Shown: piece after piece, positions 8,895-57,666 of the stretch
How the letters are laid out: every line of letters begins with the position of its first letter
Position numbering within the stretch: the stretch's first letter is position 1
NCBI RefSeq assembly: GCF_011045215.1
Contig: NZ_CP049201.1
Direction: 5' to 3' (one strand)
Source of the DNA: Escherichia coli
Lineage (GTDB): Bacteria; Pseudomonadota; Gammaproteobacteria; Enterobacterales; Enterobacteriaceae
Length of the DNA stretch: 64,000 bases
Translations under genes and position numbers: made by a program
Notes under the pieces: generated by a model
Databases searched by the model: none
What the model was told of the DNA's origin: nothing
Seen by the model: only the letters and a program-made list of their open reading frames with translations

Positions 8895-10439
8895 ATGGCT
8901 GACTCGCAACCCCTGTCCGGTGCTCCGGAAGGTGCTGAATATTTAAGAGCAGTGCTGCGCGCGCCGGTTTACGAGGCGGCGCAGGTTACGCCGCTACAAA
9001 AAATGGAAAAACTGTCGTCGCGTCTTGATAACGTCATTCTGGTGAAGCGCGAAGATCGCCAGCCAGTGCACAGCTTTAAGCTGCGCGGCGCATACGCCAT
9101 GATGGCGGGCCTGACGGAAGAACAAAAAGCGCACGGCGTGATCACTGCTTCTGCGGGTAACCACGCGCAGGGCGTCGCGTTTTCTTCTGCGCGGTTAGGC
9201 GTGAAGGCCCTGATCGTTATGCCAACCGCCACCGCCGACATCAAAGTCGACGCGGTGCGCGGCTTTGGCGGCGAAGTGCTGCTCCACGGCGCGAACTTTG
9301 ATGAAGCGAAAGCCAAAGCGATCGAACTGTCACAGCAGCAGGGGTTCACCTGGGTGCCGCCGTTCGATCATCCGATGGTGATTGCCGGGCAAGGCACGCT
9401 GGCGCTGGAACTGCTCCAGCAGGACGCCCATCTCGACCGCGTATTTGTGCCAGTCGGCGGCGGCGGTCTGGCTGCGGGCGTGGCGGTGCTGATTAAACAA
9501 CTGATGCCGCAAATCAAAGTGATCGCCGTAGAAGCGGAAGACTCCGCCTGCCTGAAAGCAGCGCTGGATGCGGGTCATCCGGTTGATCTGCCACGCGTGG
9601 GACTGTTCGCCGAAGGTGTCGCGGTAAAACGCATCGGCGACGAAACCTTCCGTTTATGCCAGGAGTATCTCGACGACATCATCACCGTCGATAGTGATGC
9701 GATCTGTGCGGCGATGAAGGATTTATTCGAAGATGTGCGTGCGGTGGCGGAACCCTCTGGCGCGCTGGCGCTGGCGGGAATGAAAAAATATATCGCCCAG
9801 CACAACATTCGCGGCGAACGGCTGGCGCATATTCTTTCCGGCGCCAACGTGAACTTCCACGGCCTGCGCTACGTCTCGGAACGCTGCGAACTGGGCGAAC
9901 AGCGTGAAGCGTTGTTGGCGGTGACCATTCCGGAAGAAAAAGGCAGCTTCCTCAAATTCTGCCAACTGCTTGGCGGGCGCTCGGTCACCGAGTTCAACTA
10001 CCGTTTTGCCGATGCCAAAAACGCCTGCATCTTTGTCGGCGTGCGCCTGAGCCGCGGCCTCGAAGAGCGCAAAGAAATTTTGCAGATGCTCAACGACGGC
10101 GGCTACAGCGTGGTGGATCTCTCCGACGACGAAATGGCGAAGTTGCATGTGCGCTATATGGTCGGCGGGCGTCCGTCACATCCGTTGCAGGAACGCCTCT
10201 ACAGCTTCGAATTCCCGGAATCACCGGGCGCGCTGCTGCGCTTCCTCAACACGCTGGGTACTCACTGGAACATTTCTTTGTTCCACTATCGCAGCCATGG
10301 CACCGACTACGGGCGCGTACTGGCGGCGTTCGAACTTGGCGACCATGAACCGGATTTCGAAACCCGGCTGAATGAGCTGGGCTACGATTGCCACGACGAA
10401 ACCAATAACCCGGCGTTCAGGTTCTTTTTGGCGGGTTAA
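8895..10439 (+). CDS. ilvA: Threonine deaminase (biosynthetic threonine dehydratase)
   Basis: 514 aa, PLP-enzyme motifs, conserved N-terminus. Confidence 0.95.
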   Translation: MADSQPLSGAPEGAEYLRAVLRAPVYEAAQVTPLQKMEKLSSRLDNVILVKREDRQPVHSFKLRGAYAMMAGLTEEQKAHGVITASAGNHAQGVAFSSARLGVKALIVMPTATADIKVDAVRGFGGEVLLHGANFDEAKAKAIELSQQQGFTWVPPFDHPMVIAGQGTLALELLQQDAHLDRVFVPVGGGGLAAGVAVLIKQLMPQIKVIAVEAEDSACLKAALDAGHPVDLPRVGLFAEGVAVKRIGDETFRLCQEYLDDIITVDSDAICAAMKDLFEDVRAVAEPSGALALAGMKKYIAQHNIRGERLAHILSGANVNFHGLRYVSERCELGEQREALLAVTIPEEKGSFLKFCQLLGGRSVTEFNYRFADAKNACIFVGVRLSRGLEERKEILQMLNDGGYSVVDLSDDEMAKLHVRYMVGGRPSHPLQERLYSFEFPESPGALLRFLNTLGTHWNISLFHYRSHGTDYGRVLAAFELGDHEPDFETRLNELGYDCHDETNNPAFRFFLAG

Positions 10440-11326
10440 TGGTTCGGCAAAATCCTCCAGAACGCCTCAATCAGCGGCTCATGCAGCCGCTTTTTTTGTG
10501 CACACACGCCCAGTTCAAACGGCGTTTTCTCATCGCTGCGATCTAAAATCATTACCCGGTTGCGTACAGGCTCCGGGCTGTTTTCCAGCACCACTTCCGG
10601 CAACAGCGCCACACCACAGCCGAGCGCCACCATCGATACCATCGCTTCATGCCCGCCAACCGTGGCGTAAATCATTGGGTTGCTGATTTTATTGCGTCGA
10701 AACCACAGTTCAATGCGGCGGCGTACTGGCCCCTGATCGGCCATGATAAACGGTACCGTTGACCAGTCCGGCTTCTCTACCGAGACCTGATTACGCACCG
10801 GGCAGGGCAGCGCGGGCGCAATCAGCACTACCGCCAGATTCTCCAGCATCGAAAACGCCACAGCGCCGGGTAGCGTCTCCGGTTTCCCGGCAATCGCCAG
10901 ATCCGCTTCGCCAGTGACCACCTTTTCCATTGCATCTGCCGCATCACCAGTGGTGAGTTTAATCTCCACCGACGGGTGTTCCGCGCGGAAGCGATCCAGA
11001 ATCGGCGGCAGATGGCTGTAGGCAGCAGTCACCGAGCAGAAGATATGTAATTCGCCAGAGAGCGACGGCCCTTGCTGATCGATGGTGTGGCGCAGCTGCT
11101 GATACTGCAACAGCGTTTGCTGGGCGAAAACGCGCAGCTCTTCGCCCGCTTCAGTCAGCGTCACCGTGCGGTTATCGCGCACAAACAGCGGCTGACCGAG
11201 ATCTTCTTCCAGGCGCTGAATCTGCCGTGAGAGCGTGGACGGGCTAACGTGCATCGCCCGCGCGCTGCGGCCAAAATGGCGGCTTTCCGCCAGATGCAGG
11301 AAGGTTTTCAGATCGCGTAAATCCAA
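10436..11326 (-). CDS. ilvY: LysR-family regulator of ilvC
   Basis: 297 aa if started at the TTG giving (M)[21 protein letters not shown]; divergent from ilvC. Confidence 0.85.
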
Positions 11327-11475
11327 TGGCGCAGCCCTCAATGTTGACGTTGCAGAAATTGCAATGTGACGTTGTGAATATATCAATTTCCGCAATAAAT
11401 TTCCTGTCATATATTGAATTCAATCTCGCAAACGCGAACCGAACAATAAGAAGCACAACATCACGAGGAATCACC
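11327..11475. promoter_or_regulatory. ilvY-ilvC divergent promoter/operator region
   Basis: Short intergenic region between divergent ilvY and ilvC. IlvY operators are expected here from established knowledge; not resolved base-by-base. Confidence 0.5.
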
Positions 11476-12951
11476 ATGGCTAACTACTTCAATACACTGA
11501 ACCTGCGCCAGCAACTGGCACAGTTGGGCAAATGTCGCTTTATGGGCCGCGACGAATTCGCCGATGGCGCGAGCTACCTTCAGGGTAAAAAAGTGGTCAT
11601 CGTCGGCTGTGGCGCACAGGGTCTGAACCAGGGCCTGAACATGCGTGATTCTGGTCTCGATATCTCCTACGCTCTGCGTAAAGAAGCGATTGCCGAGAAG
11701 CGCGCGTCCTGGCGTAAAGCGACCGAAAATGGTTTTAAAGTGGGTACTTACGAAGAACTGATCCCACAGGCGGATCTGGTGGTTAACCTGACGCCGGACA
11801 AGCAGCACTCTGATGTAGTGCACACCGTACAGCCACTGATGAAAGACGGCGCGGCGCTGGGTTACTCGCACGGTTTCAACATCGTCGAAGTGGGCGAGCA
11901 GATCCGTAAAGATATCACCGTAGTCATGGTTGCGCCGAAATGCCCTGGCACCGAAGTGCGTGAAGAGTACAAACGTGGATTCGGCGTACCGACGCTGATT
12001 GCCGTTCACCCGGAAAACGATCCGAAAGGCGAAGGTATGGCGATCGCTAAAGCATGGGCGGCAGCAACCGGTGGTCACCGTGCGGGCGTGCTGGAATCGT
12101 CCTTCGTTGCGGAAGTGAAATCTGACCTGATGGGTGAGCAAACCATTCTGTGCGGTATGTTGCAGGCCGGCTCTCTGCTGTGCTTCGACAAGCTGGTGGA
12201 AGAAGGCACCGATCCGGCATACGCAGAAAAACTGATTCAGTTCGGTTGGGAAACCATCACCGAAGCGCTGAAACAGGGCGGCATCACCCTGATGATGGAC
12301 CGTCTCTCTAACCCGGCGAAACTGCGCGCTTACGCGCTGTCAGAACAGCTGAAAGAGATCATGGCACCGCTGTTCCAGAAACATATGGACGACATCATCT
12401 CCGGCGAATTCTCCTCCGGCATGATGGCGGACTGGGCCAACGATGATAAGAAACTGCTGACCTGGCGTGAAGAGACCGGCAAAACCGCGTTTGAAACCGC
12501 GCCGCAGTATGAAGGCAAAATCGGCGAGCAGGAGTACTTCGATAAAGGCGTACTGATGATCGCGATGGTGAAAGCGGGCGTTGAACTGGCGTTCGAAACC
12601 ATGGTCGATTCCGGCATCATTGAAGAGTCTGCATATTATGAATCACTGCACGAGCTGCCGCTGATTGCCAACACCATCGCCCGTAAGCGTCTGTACGAAA
12701 TGAACGTGGTTATCTCTGATACCGCCGAGTACGGTAACTATCTGTTCTCTTACGCTTGTGTGCCGTTGCTGAAACCGTTTATGGCAGAGCTGCAACCGGG
12801 CGACCTGGGTAAAGCTATTCCGGAAGGCGCGGTAGATAACGCGCAACTGCGTGATGTGAACGAAGCGATTCGCAGCCATGCGATTGAGCAGGTAGGTAAG
12901 AAACTGCGCGGCTATATGACAGATATGAAACGCATTGCTGTTGCGGGTTAA
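11476..12951 (+). CDS. ilvC: Ketol-acid reductoisomerase
   Basis: 491 aa starting [23 protein letters not shown]. Confidence 0.95.
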
Positions 12952-51385: not shown

Positions 51386-51468
51386 TCAGCAAATCTGTAT
51401 ATATACCCAGCTTTTTGGCGGAGGGCGTTGCGCTTCTCCGCCCAACCTATTTTTACGCGGCGGTGCCA

Positions 51469-53631
51469 ATGGACGTTTCTTACCTGCTCGACAGCCTTAA
51501 TGACAAACAGCGCGAAGCGGTGGCCGCGCCACGCAGCAACCTTCTGGTGCTGGCGGGCGCGGGCAGTGGTAAGACGCGCGTACTGGTGCATCGTATCGCC
51601 TGGCTGATGAGCGTGGAAAACTGCTCGCCATACTCGATTATGGCTGTGACGTTTACCAACAAAGCGGCGGCGGAGATGCGTCATCGTATCGGGCAACTGA
51701 TGGGCACCAGCCAGGGCGGCATGTGGGTCGGCACCTTCCACGGGCTGGCGCACCGCCTGCTGCGTGCGCACCATATGGACGCCAATCTGCCGCAGGATTT
51801 CCAGATCCTCGACAGTGAAGACCAGCTGCGCCTGCTTAAGCGTTTGATCAAGGCGATGAACCTCGACGAGAAGCAGTGGCCGCCGCGCCAGGCAATGTGG
51901 TACATCAACAGCCAGAAAGATGAAGGCTTACGTCCGCATCATATTCAAAGCTACGGTAATCCGGTGGAGCAGACCTGGCAGAAGGTGTATCAGGCGTATC
52001 AGGAAGCGTGCGATCGTGCGGGTCTGGTGGACTTCGCCGAGCTACTGCTACGTGCTCACGAGTTGTGGCTTAACAAGCCGCATATCCTGCAACACTACCG
52101 CGAACGTTTTACCAATATCCTGGTGGACGAATTCCAGGATACCAACAACATTCAGTACGCGTGGATCCGCCTGCTGGCGGGCGACACCGGCAAAGTGATG
52201 ATCGTCGGTGATGACGACCAGTCAATCTACGGCTGGCGCGGGGCGCAGGTGGAGAATATTCAGCGTTTCCTCAATGATTTCCCCGGTGCCGAAACTATCC
52301 GTCTGGAGCAGAACTATCGTTCTACCAGTAACATTCTGAGCGCCGCGAACGCCCTGATTGAAAACAACAACGGGCGTCTGGGTAAAAAACTGTGGACCGA
52401 TGGCGCGGACGGTGAGCCTATTTCCCTCTATTGCGCTTTTAACGAACTCGACGAAGCGCGTTTTGTGGTTAATCGCATCAAAACCTGGCAGGACAACGGC
52501 GGGGCGCTTGCCGAGTGCGCCATTCTCTACCGCAGCAACGCCCAGTCGCGTGTACTGGAAGAGGCCTTATTACAGGCGAGTATGCCGTACCGTATTTACG
52601 GCGGGATGCGCTTCTTCGAACGCCAGGAAATCAAAGATGCGCTCTCGTATCTGCGCCTGATTGCCAACCGCAACGACGACGCGGCCTTTGAGCGCGTAGT
52701 GAATACACCAACGCGGGGTATTGGTGACCGGACGCTGGACGTGGTACGTCAGACATCGCGCGATCGCCAGTTAACACTCTGGCAGGCATGTCGTGAACTG
52801 TTGCAGGAAAAAGCCCTCGCCGGACGTGCTGCCAGCGCCTTACAGCGGTTTATGGAACTGATCGACGCCTTAGCGCAGGAAACTGCCGATATGCCGCTGC
52901 ATGTACAGACTGACCGGGTAATTAAAGACTCCGGCCTGCGCACCATGTACGAGCAGGAGAAGGGCGAAAAAGGTCAGACGCGTATCGAAAACTTAGAGGA
53001 ACTGGTGACGGCAACGCGCCAGTTCAGCTACAACAAAGAAGATGAAGATTTAATGCCGCTGCAGGCGTTCCTCTCCCATGCGGCGCTGGAAGCGGGCGAG
53101 GGGCAGGCGGATACCTGGCAGGACGCGGTGCAGTTGATGACGCTACACTCGGCGAAAGGGCTGGAGTTCCCGCAGGTGTTTATCGTCGGTATGGAAGAGG
53201 GCATGTTCCCAAGCCAGATGTCGCTGGATGAAGGCGGTCGTCTGGAAGAAGAACGCCGTCTGGCCTACGTTGGCGTAACCCGTGCGATGCAGAAACTGAC
53301 GCTGACCTACGCGGAAACTCGCCGTCTGTATGGCAAAGAGGTTTACCATCGCCCGTCGCGCTTTATCGGTGAGTTGCCGGAAGAGTGTGTGGAAGAGGTG
53401 CGCCTGCGCGCCACGGTAAGCCGCCCGGTCAGCCATCAGCGTATGGGTACGCCGATGGTCGAGAACGACAGCGGCTACAAGCTCGGCCAGCGTGTACGCC
53501 ACGCTAAGTTTGGTGAAGGCACCATCGTCAATATGGAAGGCAGCGGTGAACATAGCCGTTTGCAGGTGGCGTTCCAGGGCCAGGGAATCAAATGGCTGGT
53601 GGCGGCTTACGCCCGGCTGGAGACGGTGTAA
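51469..53631 (+). CDS. uvrD: DNA helicase II
   Basis: 720 aa starting [38 protein letters not shown]. Confidence 0.95.
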   Translation: MDVSYLLDSLNDKQREAVAAPRSNLLVLAGAGSGKTRVLVHRIAWLMSVENCSPYSIMAVTFTNKAAAEMRHRIGQLMGTSQGGMWVGTFHGLAHRLLRAHHMDANLPQDFQILDSEDQLRLLKRLIKAMNLDEKQWPPRQAMWYINSQKDEGLRPHHIQSYGNPVEQTWQKVYQAYQEACDRAGLVDFAELLLRAHELWLNKPHILQHYRERFTNILVDEFQDTNNIQYAWIRLLAGDTGKVMIVGDDDQSIYGWRGAQVENIQRFLNDFPGAETIRLEQNYRSTSNILSAANALIENNNGRLGKKLWTDGADGEPISLYCAFNELDEARFVVNRIKTWQDNGGALAECAILYRSNAQSRVLEEALLQASMPYRIYGGMRFFERQEIKDALSYLRLIANRNDDAAFERVVNTPTRGIGDRTLDVVRQTSRDRQLTLWQACRELLQEKALAGRAASALQRFMELIDALAQETADMPLHVQTDRVIKDSGLRTMYEQEKGEKGQTRIENLEELVTATRQFSYNKEDEDLMPLQAFLSHAALEAGEGQADTWQDAVQLMTLHSAKGLEFPQVFIVGMEEGMFPSQMSLDEGGRLEEERRLAYVGVTRAMQKLTLTYAETRRLYGKEVYHRPSRFIGELPEECVEEVRLRATVSRPVSHQRMGTPMVENDSGYKLGQRVRHAKFGEGTIVNMEGSGEHSRLQVAFQGQGIKWLVAAYARLETV

Positions 53632-53645
53632 TTTACAACTCCGTT

Positions 53646-53676
53646 GCCGGATGCGGTGCGCCACACCGCATCCGGC
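53646..53676. repeat. REP-like palindrome
   Basis: GCCGGATGCGGTGCGCCACACCGCATCCGGC just after the uvrD stop. Confidence 0.5.
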
Positions 53677-53685
53677 ATCAGCACC

Positions 53686-54588
53686 TTACTTAGCGCACTT
53701 CTTCACATCAATATTCCAGTCAGCACCAGACGCAACCTGATGTTTCTGCGCGAAATTATCCATATTCAGCGCCACGGAAACATTCAATAAGCTGTTCAGA
53801 TAGACCATCGGCTGGCCTTCCGGCACATCGCCGAAGCTTGCGACATACGGCATTTTCCCTTCGTATTTTTGCTGGGAACCTTCGGAAATGGTTACACACA
53901 ACGTGTCGTTGAGTTTGATTCCTGCCTGATTCAGCAACTCGTCGCTGATATTGCTCCAGACGTTGCCGTACTGAATATCGAGAATCGGGATATTGCCCTT
54001 CACTTCACCTTTTGTTGCTTTGGCTTTCTGATAAGAAAGTTCGACAACTTTTGCCGGAAGCTCTGGCCCCACCTGCTCGAACGTGATCGCTCCGGAAGCC
54101 AGACGCGCACCGGTGTAGGCATACACGTCACGACCGTGGAAGGTATATGACTTTTCGGAACCTTTCAGGCGGTTGGTTTTTTCATCGATTTGCCGGACGC
54201 TCTCAATACCCAGCGATTCCGCCACCAAAGTGAGCGTACCGTTATCTGGTGAAACGAAGTATTGACCGTTTTTGGTTTTCAGCACTACCGATTTACGGTC
54301 TGTACCAACACCAGGATCGACCACACTGACAAATACCGAACCTTGCGGCCAGTAACTGGCGGTCTGATACAGGCGGTAAGCGCCTTCCCAGATGTTATAC
54401 GGTGGAATTTCGTGTGTTAAATCAAATATTTTAAGATTATGGTCAACACCGAATGCGACCCCTTTCATCGCCGAGACGGCACCATCTTTCAGGCTAAAAT
54501 CAGTTTGTAAAATCAAAGCGTTATCCGCATAAGCGGATGATGATCCCAGACACGTTAATAAAAATAACGTTGCGAGCGTTTTTTTCAT
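53686..54588 (-). CDS. Signal-peptide-bearing DUF62-family protein (SAM hydroxide adenosyltransferase / fluorinase-chlorinase fold)
   Basis: 300 aa. N-terminal signal-like sequence MKKTLATLFLLTCLGSSSAYA. Motifs LILQTDFS..DGAVSAMKGV, DLTHEIP, VVDPGVGTDR, VSPDNG and YTFHGRD match the DUF62 signature as I recall it from archaeal/bacterial homologues. About 44% GC in the stretch I counted. Confidence 0.8.
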   Translation of the reverse strand: MKKTLATLFLLTCLGSSSAYADNALILQTDFSLKDGAVSAMKGVAFGVDHNLKIFDLTHEIPPYNIWEGAYRLYQTASYWPQGSVFVSVVDPGVGTDRKSVVLKTKNGQYFVSPDNGTLTLVAESLGIESVRQIDEKTNRLKGSEKSYTFHGRDVYAYTGARLASGAITFEQVGPELPAKVVELSYQKAKATKGEVKGNIPILDIQYGNVWSNISDELLNQAGIKLNDTLCVTISEGSQQKYEGKMPYVASFGDVPEGQPMVYLNSLLNVSVALNMDNFAQKHQVASGADWNIDVKKCAK

Positions 54589-54670
54589 TTTTGTTTCCCT
54601 TCATTTATCTGATGATTTTCCAGCTGTGTAGCCAGCCCCAGTTTGTCTGGCCTCCTCGAGTGTACAATGC

Positions 54671-55435
54671 TTAACCTTTCCGCTCGACGGAAATCATGGT
54701 GACAAAAGGATAGCGTTGCCACGGGATTGCCCCGCCTTTCATATACATATGTGAAATCGTGCCATCAAGATAAAGCAGTTGCTCAACGTTCAGTTTCGCT
54801 TTGGCATAACAGGCAAAATCATAAAAATTTGTCGCCTGCTGGCTCAACAAAAACACGGCATTCCCATGTTTATTAATCCCAACACCGTTACGAATTTTAC
54901 GTGAGGCGACGTTGGGATGAATACGCGGATTAATTACACTGTTTTCCATCAACATTGGCCCTGACTGCACCGCAAACTGAATCTCTTTACTGGTTTTGAA
55001 GGCATCCAGACGAACGATGCCGACTTTATCTCCCGCGACATAAAACACGCCGCCAGGACGGATAAAGAAATTCCCTTCACCTGAAGCGAGATTTAACGCC
55101 ACCTTCTGCTGACCGTTTTCGATGTACAAACCGAGCGGCGCATAGCTTTCATCATAGATGCCGCCGTTCATCGCCATCTGCACCTGACCCTGGCTATTCA
55201 TATCCGCCAGCAGAGCATGTAAAGTTCCCCACGCTTCGCCATTGGCTTTTTGCCAGTACATTTTCACCCGCTCTGTTTGAGGATTAACGGTATACGCCTG
55301 TACGGTCAGCGTCGGATCTGAGAGTGCGCAATCATCAGCGGCAACAGCAAACAAGGGAAGTAAGGTGAGGGCGAGAAAAATCCGTTTGAGATTCAAGGTG
55401 ATCATTCCTTTACCAATGAGTAGCCGATGCGCCAT
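54671..55435 (-). CDS. yigE: DUF2233-family exported protein
   Basis: 254 aa with signal-like N-terminus, conserved position upstream of corA. Confidence 0.75.
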   Translation of the reverse strand: MAHRLLIGKGMITLNLKRIFLALTLLPLFAVAADDCALSDPTLTVQAYTVNPQTERVKMYWQKANGEAWGTLHALLADMNSQGQVQMAMNGGIYDESYAPLGLYIENGQQKVALNLASGEGNFFIRPGGVFYVAGDKVGIVRLDAFKTSKEIQFAVQSGPMLMENSVINPRIHPNVASRKIRNGVGINKHGNAVFLLSQQATNFYDFACYAKAKLNVEQLLYLDGTISHMYMKGGAIPWQRYPFVTMISVERKG

Positions 55436-55804
55436 TATAGGTCCTGGATGTGGGATTTTTTTATCCTGTTAGCGACCTTGACGAGTACCAAAAAGCGCGA
55501 AGTTCAACTATTGTTCTGTGGTGTTCTGTTGCGTGTTGACGGCAAAATTTTGCTGGCGTAACATGCGCGCACGATCACTCTAAGAGGACATTCGCCTTGG
55601 ACACACCCAGTAGATACTGGCTCACTATCCTGTCATCCAGGATCAACTCCTAAGGCTATCCCTTTTTGCTGATAGCCTTAGCGGTTGTCAGCGACCTCAA
55701 TTTTTCCCGTCGCGCTGAGTCAGGCTGTTTAATGGTCTGAAACCCAATTTGTTTCTGTGTGCCCACCGAACTGTCCGATATTTTAAGCATTGGGAGTCCC
55801 GGTC

Positions 55805-56797: not shown

Positions 56798-57178
56798 TCA
56801 AAGGCTCCAGGTATTTAACCCTTTTACCTCTTTCTCATAGAACCATTTGTTCGTGTTAACAGCAACATAGGCTGCTACGGCAATTCCCAGAATGTTAACG
56901 CCAATTAATGCACCAACAAATAGAGATAGAATGCCAAGTAATAGAACTATAATTGCTTTTTTCCATAAGCCCAGAACAAATAAATAGATCCAGGAACAGA
57001 AGAAAGCAATGAAATTCATTTGAATAGTTAATCGTTGTCTTACTTTTAATGCTTTAAATGCTGCTTTATATTCTGGTGTTGCTCCCCAGAATCCAGGAAA
57101 GCCATGTTGATCATAAAAATTAAATCGGTATTTCCATTTTTCACTTAATGAACCATCGTTCATATATTCCTTACTCAT
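56798..57178 (-). CDS. yigF: Small inner-membrane protein
   Basis: 126 aa starting MSKEYMNDGS, two predicted TM helices, AT-rich gene. Confidence 0.7.
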   Translation of the reverse strand: MSKEYMNDGSLSEKWKYRFNFYDQHGFPGFWGATPEYKAAFKALKVRQRLTIQMNFIAFFCSWIYLFVLGLWKKAIIVLLLGILSLFVGALIGVNILGIAVAAYVAVNTNKWFYEKEVKGLNTWSL

Positions 57179-57191
57179 AAATACTCCATAA

Positions 57192-57572
57192 CTATTGTTT
57201 TGATGAATCAGTAGGTGCAAGCATTAGCATACTGAAAGTGGAAAAATAACAAATCAAAAAAATCATCGAACCATTGCCTGAACAGGCAAAATCTTCGGCT
57301 ATCATTGTGATGATAGAGATGATATATACTGCTAATGTACCAAAAACATAAGTTTTTATATAGATGAAACCACTATCACGGAGTCGCTGGCAATTCATGT
57401 TGATGACGAGATAATGGAGTACGATGGTAGAGACTATAACAAGAAAACCTGCTTCCCCATCGTTAAAAAAGATAATAAGAAAGGCAAAAATGAAATTTAT
57501 TAAAATAAATGAAAATATATATCGGCGTCTGGAAATCTTACCGTTAGATGTTGGGATAAACATACGTAACAT
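57192..57572 (-). CDS. yigG: Small inner-membrane protein
   Basis: About 126 aa if started at [11 protein letters not shown]; hydrophobic; AT-rich; start uncertain. Confidence 0.6.
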
Positions 57573-57666
57573 AAATTTTACATCCTTGTGTGAGTCTCCT
57601 GTCAGCATGGCAATATGCCCACTCTCATACAAGAGTCGGCATATTTTTTCAGAATATATTTATTTT

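Follow-up and report, generated by a model that had tools for sequence, protein, structure and literature searches.

Enzymes of the DUF62 superfamily are regarded as cytoplasmic S-adenosylmethionine (SAM) hydrolases or halogenases, and they assemble as homotrimers with active sites at the subunit interfaces. Members share the motifs PxNGL and IDxxFGN (PMC4859513). The hydrolases are defined by a water-activating His-Arg-Asp triad, D68-R75-H127 in PH0463, that is absent in the halogenases (PMC10491745, PMC4859513); these instead use T80/S158 (FlA) or Y70/G131 (SalL) (PMC4859513, PMC10491745). What DUF62 enzymes do physiologically is still debated (PMC12120602). Here we describe a DUF62 gene whose product appears to be exported. 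The gene occupies positions 53686–54588 (minus strand) of a 64,000-nucleotide stretch of Escherichia coli DNA (contig NZ_CP049201.1, assembly GCF_011045215.1), called the window below, where it lies between uvrD and yigE. The open reading frame (ORF) list, Pfam and matches to PDB sequences mark it as a coding sequence of an exported DUF62 (SAM_HAT) family, with a predicted periplasmic SAM hydrolase as its product. Our preferred reading, to which we assign a probability of roughly 0.5, is that the protein is a Sec-exported, probably disulfide-stabilised DUF62/SAM hydroxide adenosyltransferase that would act in the periplasm as an adenosine-forming SAM hydrolase and scavenge exogenous SAM.

A hydrolase-type DUF62 protein

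The ORF begins with an ATG, encodes 300 amino acids (aa) and ends in a stop codon at 53686–53688 on the minus strand. An earlier, sequence-only reading of this DNA had described the product as a two-domain DUF62 protein, and both domains match: SAM_HAT_N (PF01887) covers residues 26–174 (E = 4.8e-53) and SAM_HAT_C (PF20257) covers residues 198–291 (E = 2.4e-18). Sixteen PDB sequences matched at E ≤ 1e-20. The best of these were DUF62 hydrolases and SalL, with E-values down to 4.5e-44 (8.5e-36 for SalL itself), and FlA matched at about 1e-23. Identity to characterised or cytoplasmic relatives is 30–48%.

Orthologues were taken from 80 loci in species-representative genomes, and 78 proteins were usable. 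The loci come from Escherichia, Helicobacter, about 25 Aeromonas species, Pasteurellaceae, Edwardsiella, Thorsellia, and metagenome-assembled genomes (MAGs) of Neisseriales and Burkholderiales, as well as from Chitinophagaceae and other Bacteroidota, Verrucomicrobiota, Synergistota, Tissierellia, Fusobacteriota, Thermotogota, and Planctomycetota. Across the 78 proteins the hydrolase triad is retained: Asp91 and Arg98 are present in all and His151 in 73, and the D-to-R spacing of +7 is that of the PH0463 triad D68-R75-H127. Asp30 and Asn209 are likewise found in 78 of 78. We take Asp30 to be the ribose-binding Asp (FlA D16) and Asn209 to correspond to FlA N215, from a manual alignment to the FlA sequence. 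Asp35, which matches FlA Asp21, is conserved in 77 proteins; in FlA this residue presumably contacts the methionine amino group. The segments P114-D-N-G (PDNG) and L203-D-I-Q-Y-G-N (LDIQYGN) match the two family motifs. At the positions that distinguish halogenases, the protein has Val94 (FlA T80) and Gly152 (FlA S158), as mapped by hand from the PDB alignments and the FlA sequence, and the SalL Tyr in VYPETGT aligns manually with the triad residue Asp91. The five proteins lacking His151 are all from Synergistota (loci L042, L052, L057, L058, and L060); they keep Asp91 and Arg98 and carry Phe in place of His, a lineage-specific change that may alter the chemistry.

The equivalog models for (R)-SAM hydrolases, NF058624 and NF053629, gave 131.5 bits (cut-off 350) and 115 bits (cut-off 470), and the fluorinase model TIGR04507 gave 84 bits (cut-off 400). 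Because the triad is kept, halogenase-specific residues are absent, and the scores lie below both the equivalog and the fluorinase cut-offs, we assign the protein to the hydrolase type; judged on these residues and scores, it is neither a halogenase nor an orthologue of the characterised (R)-SAM hydrolases. The alignments support both family membership and the catalytic triad.

The same data bear on a different substrate. An exported enzyme using the same SN2 chemistry might act on another extracellular 5′-activated adenosine, for example decarboxylated SAM, a 5′-O-sulfamoyl or other nucleoside antibiotic, or 5′-halo-5′-deoxyadenosine, and would then serve detoxification or competition, not nutrition. 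The low identity to known relatives, the scores below all NCBIfam equivalog cut-offs, and a patchy distribution, prone to horizontal gene transfer and typical of niche genes, are compatible with such a role. So are eight positions (Lys34, Glu60, Tyr186, Tyr207, Asn209, Trp211, Asn265, and Leu267) that are nearly invariant in the exported clade and variable or different in cytoplasmic relatives. Nonetheless, the ribose-binding and water-activating residues are unchanged and Asp35 is almost always present, and we consider a substrate other than SAM unlikely.

An export signal across a diverse clade

The sequence-only reading had also proposed a Sec-type signal peptide, and this survives closer inspection. 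The N-terminus divides into n-, h-, and c-regions (MKK / TLATLFLLTCLG / SSSAYA|DN), with A-Y-A at −3 to −1 of the predicted cleavage site A-Y-A|D-N. The putative signal peptide read from the sequence, residues 1–21 (MKKTLATLFLLTCLGSSSAYA), is encoded at 54526–54588 (minus strand). The best 10-aa hydropathy window of this region scores 2.47, and there is no twin-arginine motif. A rule-based check found the charged n-region, the h-region, and the small-x-small motif ahead of the folded domain that mark Sec and signal peptidase I substrates, and the Pfam domain begins 4–5 residues past the predicted cleavage site. An internal start, which would have removed the signal, is excluded because the first internal Met (M41) lies past the invariant Asp30.

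This N-terminal architecture is conserved in character across the clade. In all 78 orthologues (at least 55% identity, about ten phyla) a hydrophobic extension of 18–38 aa precedes the first strand, compared with a median extension of 3 aa in 25 cytoplasmic-type relatives. Orthologues at this level of identity with signal peptides occur in Proteobacteria, Bacteroidota, Verrucomicrobiota, Synergistota, Firmicutes, Fusobacteriota, Thermotogota, and Planctomycetota. A simple test for charge and hydrophobic core is passed by 72 of the 78, and most of the remaining six seem to have been called too short at the start codon. In 74, a small-x-small motif falls within the final 10 residues of the extension, immediately ahead of the mature domain. 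Between E. coli and the closest Helicobacter pylori protein (HP0709, discussed below), the signal region shares 62% of its residues and the mature part 91%. Such a split is usual for signal peptides.

A pair of cysteines points the same way. Of the orthologues, 35 have both Cys231 and Cys298, 43 have neither, and none has just one. The 35 comprise 34 proteobacterial proteins and one from a Desulfobacterales MAG, and cytoplasmic relatives have no Cys at either position. This co-variation is the pattern expected of a structural disulfide in an oxidising compartment, and the two residues would form that bond in the E. coli protein. Together, the tripartite N-termini and the cysteine pair support an export signal across the clade; for the E. 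coli protein, cleavage after residue 21 and a periplasmic location are probable. HP0709 is listed in outer-membrane vesicle (OMV) proteomes of H. pylori, and patients make antibodies to it, both of which bear indirectly on location.

The hydrophobic N-terminus might instead remain uncleaved, as a membrane anchor or, via Cys13, as a lipoprotein anchor, so that the enzyme would be tethered and face the periplasm. Cys13 lies within L-L-T-C, a weak lipobox-like context, and possible lipoboxes occur in some orthologues from Bacteroidota and Aeromonas. The recovery of HP0709 in OMVs would also fit. We regard tethering as improbable: Thr is a non-standard lipobox residue at −1, Cys13 occurs in only 8% of orthologues and is absent in the divergent H. 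pylori SA213A, and the small-x-small motif at the end of the extension in 74 of 78 proteins speaks for cleavage.

Exported proteins split from five cytoplasmic representatives with 99% bootstrap in a neighbour-joining tree. Among the 93 near-full-length representatives of 50%-identity clusters closest to the query, 56 have signal-like and 32 have cytoplasmic-like N-termini, so the exported group is large and diverse. Its members come from soil, digester, gut, and aquatic bacteria. The ratio of nonsynonymous to synonymous divergence (dN/dS) is 0.013–0.06, both within Escherichia and between E. coli and H. pylori; on these estimates the gene shows strong purifying selection.

Several relatives appear to carry additional domains. 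For example, two Fervidobacterium MAGs encode exported DUF62 proteins of 640 aa (L070:5971-7890 and L077:5953-7875) that are fused, as judged by eye, to what seems another SAM_HAT_C-like repeat and to a C-terminal domain bearing a CX5R phosphatase signature (HCVEGKDRAG). Further DUF62 representatives have, again judged by eye, a fused VanX-like (P0205) or alpha/beta-hydrolase-like (P0161) domain.

Probable loss in Escherichia and a copy in Helicobacter

The gene lies between uvrD and yigE in 2,412 of 5,426 complete E. coli genomes (44%), counting genomes in which it matched over at least 80% of its length. Nearly all of the remaining genomes (56%) match the uvrD and yigE flanks only. The spacer between these genes is 1,039 bp in the window (53632–54670), compared with 146 bp of repetitive extragenic palindromic (REP)-type sequence in a K-12-type genome. 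Strain names place O157:H7, O145, an ST131-labelled strain, 'Seattle 1946' and APEC, as well as ATCC 25922-type strains, among the carriers, and O16:H48 (K-12 type), O103:H2, and ATCC 43886 among the non-carriers. The presence/absence polymorphism that the sequence-only reading had supposed, with K-12 lacking the gene, is thus real. That reading had also called the region an extra segment. The occupied spacer is confirmed by comparison with K-12; as to its origin, loss of an old Escherichia gene is likelier than a recent insertion.

Two observations carry this view of its origin. All 44 sampled E. coli copies are full length, with nucleotide identities of 95.6–100%, and yigE adjoins the gene in two species-representative Escherichia genomes whose copies differ from that in the window by a synonymous divergence (dS) of about 0.3. 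Because the gene holds the same place in such divergent clades and has this range of identity within E. coli, it is more likely an old resident of the uvrD-yigE locus, lost in K-12-like lineages, than a recent arrival. The K-12 spacer has no visible remnant of the DUF62 gene, so no scar distinguishes deletion from insertion. A peptide-pattern scan did not find the gene in representative genomes of Salmonella, Citrobacter, Klebsiella, E. albertii, and E. fergusonii, where it is probably absent.

Absence from 56% of complete genomes could also suggest a decaying, functionless hitch-hiker, possibly read from an internal start as a cytoplasmic (R)-SAM repair enzyme. The closest matches to the DUF62 protein include Shigella entries, some of which are shortened at the N-terminus to 276–290 aa. 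This explanation is essentially refuted by the dN/dS of 0.013–0.06, by the 2,412 genomes retaining at least 80% of the gene, and by the full-length copies in every sampled E. coli row. Furthermore, with a start at Met41 the protein would lose invariant Asp30 as well as the Pfam domain's first strand, and every orthologue, whatever its phylum, retains the signal peptide.

Outside Escherichia and Shigella, the closest proteins come from H. pylori and H. acinonychis, with 88–89% identity over all 300 residues. The H. pylori copy compared here (CP079055.1, L003:6001-6903) lies in a locus with the order uvrA, an outer-membrane protein (OMP) gene, rsmH, a small ORF, the DUF62 gene, a 660-aa ORF without Pfam matches and, further along, rpoN. 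This order identifies it as HP0709/jhp0648, beside homA (PMC6083042, PMC6090961). It aligns with positions 53686–54588 of the window without gaps: both genes are 903 nt long, and they are 88.7% identical in amino acids and 82.9% in nucleotides, falling to 64% at third codon positions (dN 0.06, dS about 1.0). HP0709 appears to be widespread in H. pylori, where one 90%-identity cluster alone has 2,579 member sequences.

Phylogenetic analysis places the Escherichia and H. pylori proteins as sisters (100% bootstrap), joined by Edwardsiella (80%) and then by other Gammaproteobacteria at 70–76% identity. The GC content of HP0709 is 44.5%, compared with 38% for its locus and 33–41% for its neighbours, and nucleotide similarity between the E. 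coli and H. pylori loci ends at the ends of the ORF. HP0709 is flanked by a 154-nt direct repeat, 87% identical (L003:5835-5988 and L003:7009-7162), that duplicates the upstream region and first ∼12 codons of homA (HP0710) (MRKQFTPLLLFRK, then a stop, in one copy and MKKLFIPLLLFS, which continues, in the other). The repeat resembles the scar of an insertion, and with it a duplicated homA promoter would lie in front of HP0709. Given the sister position, the GC contrast, the similarity limited to the ORF, and the flanking duplication, we favour transfer from an Escherichia-like enterobacterium, or from a shared unsampled donor, into the H. pylori/H. acinonychis lineage; it is from these same features that we infer the direction. 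The transfer is not recent, given the dS of about 1.0 and the 64% identity at third positions. The history that we propose is an old Escherichia resident, lost in K-12-like lineages, with a close relative that moved to the H. pylori lineage and became HP0709.

No true plasmid or phage carrying the gene was found in the collections searched. In the plasmid collection, true plasmids hold only cytoplasmic-type relatives with less than 50% identity. Plasmid matches of 75–98% identity were rejected as carriers: these are 4.9-Mb chromosomes filed as plasmids (PLSDB NZ_CP134663.1, NZ_CP141089.1, and NZ_AP026896.1 are each 4.9 Mb and evidently chromosomal). The sole close phage match is an H. pylori prophage record that encloses chromosomal uvrA-HP0709-homA, and phage carriage was rejected. 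In that record (PQ159899.1, 'Helicobacter phage Pt11444_1', L086), the stretch 4054-12606 contains the chromosomal series uvrA-OMP-rsmH-HP0708-HP0709-homA, and its prophage boundary seems over-called. A prophage integration hotspot has been described beside homA and the HP0709 gene (PMC11321410).

Genomic context, proposed function, and known systems

The gene behaves as a stand-alone unit that is not bound to an operon. An all-against-all BLAST of three genes on each side of ∼78 loci revealed no neighbour family common beyond the genus; synteny was seen only within Aeromonas, and the neighbour clusters that recur across taxa are large generic families (ABC ATPases, LysR), compatible with chance. 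In nine Aeromonas species an ORF with an RNase T2/RNase I-like motif (FDYYALALSWSPEHC) lies 1–3 genes downstream of the DUF62 gene (e.g. L034:8468-9220). The suggestion that the DUF62 protein acts together with yigE does not hold, and a functional unit of the two was rejected: a tblastn search found yigE homologues beside the gene in only four loci, all Escherichia, among 85. Within E. coli, co-transcription with yigE is likely, as the simplest reading of an 82-bp spacer (54589–54670, minus strand) that runs from the stop of yigE to the start of the DUF62 gene and in which a scan found no promoter-like or terminator-like match. A Shine-Dalgarno-like GAAGGGA, read from the sequence, lies within this spacer at 54596–54602 (minus strand), 7 nt 5′ of the ATG.

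Upstream on the same strand is yigE (54671–55435, minus strand), which RefSeq annotation of matching loci places in the DUF2233/phosphodiester glycosidase family. Downstream and convergent is uvrD (DNA helicase II; 51415–53631, plus strand), identified from the ORF list and matching RefSeq loci; 51415 is the start in the ORF list, and the true start is probably an internal ATG. Between the convergent uvrD and DUF62 genes, an inverted-repeat search identified a perfect REP-type palindrome (53645–53677, no strand) with 14-nt arms and a 5-nt loop, which aligns with the first REP of the K-12 spacer; the REP element noted earlier beside the extra segment is therefore present. The claim that the gene has a lower GC content than its neighbours is correct with respect to uvrD (47.6% vs 57.7%) and incorrect with respect to yigE (47.8%); corA has 52.3%. 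In matching E. coli records, the RefSeq annotation includes ysgD, a small protein gene of 18 codons located between yigE and corA (L001:2805-2861 and L002:3698-3754), corresponding to the yigE-corA intergenic region at about 55436–55789 of the window. Just past corA, at 56798–57632 (minus strand), are two overlapping small ORFs of 140 and 146 aa with hydrophobic, membrane-protein-like products. We take these to be, probably, the yigF/yigG pair known from K-12; the stretch has a GC content of 33–34%, far below its surroundings.

We propose the following sequence of events for the DUF62 protein. The 21-residue signal peptide would be removed, and the mature periplasmic enzyme would bind a 5′-sulfonium adenosine, most likely SAM released by the host or by other cells. 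Asp91-Arg98-His151 would then activate water for SN2 attack at C5′, as expected from family chemistry, yielding adenosine and L-methionine. Both products could be imported; to our knowledge, E. coli does not import SAM itself. The enzyme would thus be a stand-alone scavenger, outside any operon. Scavenging a universal metabolite from dead cells fits a clade found in gut, digester, soil, and aquatic heterotrophs. It would be especially useful to H. pylori, because this bacterium is a purine auxotroph and requires methionine. H. pylori lacks de novo purine synthesis and depends on salvage (PMC13328217, PMC13280913). In biofilms of strain SS1, a gene named salL, presumably HP0709, was up 2.87-fold alongside the methionine transporter gene metI (up 2.18-fold).

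Several points weigh against this proposal. The signal peptide was judged by simple charge and hydrophobicity rules. Listing in OMVs says little about localisation, because ribosomal proteins appear in the OMV proteome too. SAM outside the cell is chemically unstable, and the DUF62 enzymes characterised so far work slowly and favour the (R,S) epimer, a poor fit to a nutritional role. Scores far below the (R)-SAM hydrolase equivalog cut-offs suggest that substrate specificity may differ. The neighbourhoods of the ∼78 loci contain no conserved nucleoside or methionine transporter. Likewise, no SAM, purine, or T-box riboswitch lies beside 14 non-proteobacterial orthologues (from Firmicutes, Fusobacteriota, Synergistota, and Thermotogota), where an Rfam scan at gathering thresholds matched only an rRNA fragment. 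As for the alternative substrates considered above, neither resistance-type nor biosynthetic neighbours were found in the ∼78 loci, and a universal metabolite suits the spread of the clade over soil, digester, gut, and aquatic bacteria better than a rare antibiotic does. SAM hydrolysis for scavenging remains our preferred reading.

More broadly, and more tentatively, exported DUF62 proteins may form a widespread, unrecognised extracytoplasmic class of SAM-cleaving enzymes that harvest adenosine and methionine, in which case the transfer from Enterobacterales to Helicobacter could have become fixed because of the purine and methionine auxotrophies of the recipient. If so, HP0709, which is immunogenic and whose D49N variant was associated with gastric cancer in a genome-wide association study, would be a nutritional fitness factor. 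Its kinship with the E. coli gene supplies a functional hypothesis for HP0709, and the 89% protein identity between the enterobacterial and H. pylori genes, under strong purifying selection, makes a clear case of cross-phylum transfer between human-associated bacteria. A large exported clade would also imply that, beyond the cytoplasm, there is a substrate pool or a use for SAM not considered so far. The hypothesis is cheap to test: because the gene is present in ∼44% of E. coli, in Shigella, and apparently widely in H. pylori, genetics is possible in two model pathogens.

The gene itself is already known, since RefSeq lists it under a generic family name ('SAM hydrolase/SAM-dependent halogenase family protein'). 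Two things are new within the limits of the searchable literature: the broad exported DUF62 clade with its disulfide signature and intact hydrolase triad, and HP0709 as an apparently horizontally acquired near-copy. In that literature we found neither work on any exported DUF62 member nor a functional study of HP0709, and the E. coli/H. pylori relationship was not reported there either.

In function, the proposed enzyme would be comparable to the periplasmic nucleotide and nucleoside scavengers UshA, CpdB, AphA, and RNase I of enterobacteria and NucT of H. pylori. The logic is the same, an exported hydrolase that converts a non-importable compound into transportable pieces. The comparison is functional only, as folds and chemistry are unrelated. 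The halogenases FlA (1RQP) and SalL (2Q6I) have the same fold and SAM-binding scaffold as the DUF62 protein; they lack the triad, which the E. coli protein has. The alignment with FlA breaks into two separate stretches, and in the query we saw nothing equivalent to the fluorinase-specific loop.

The closest described systems are the SAM hydrolases: PH0463 of Pyrococcus horikoshii (1WU8/2WR8), SaDUF62, StDUF62, the archaeal SaciSAMH and HvSAMH, and the solved homologue 2ZBU. They have the same SAM_HAT_N and SAM_HAT_C architecture as the E. coli protein, and share with it the Asp-Arg-His triad, the ribose-binding Asp, and the PxNG and (I/L)DxxFGN motifs. It is because of this common architecture, triad, and motifs that we predict SN2 displacement of methionine from C5′ by hydroxide. 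The differences lie in location and divergence. The characterised SAM hydrolases are cytoplasmic and have no N-terminal extension, whereas the exported clade has signal peptides; its proteobacterial members also have the co-varying Cys pair, of which Cys298 lies in a short C-terminal tail. Among solved members the best E-value is 4.5e-44, and scores are well under the NCBIfam equivalog cut-offs. Finally, the cytoplasmic role proposed for the SAM hydrolases, removal of (R,S)-SAM, would not apply in the periplasm, where we expect the E. coli protein to act.

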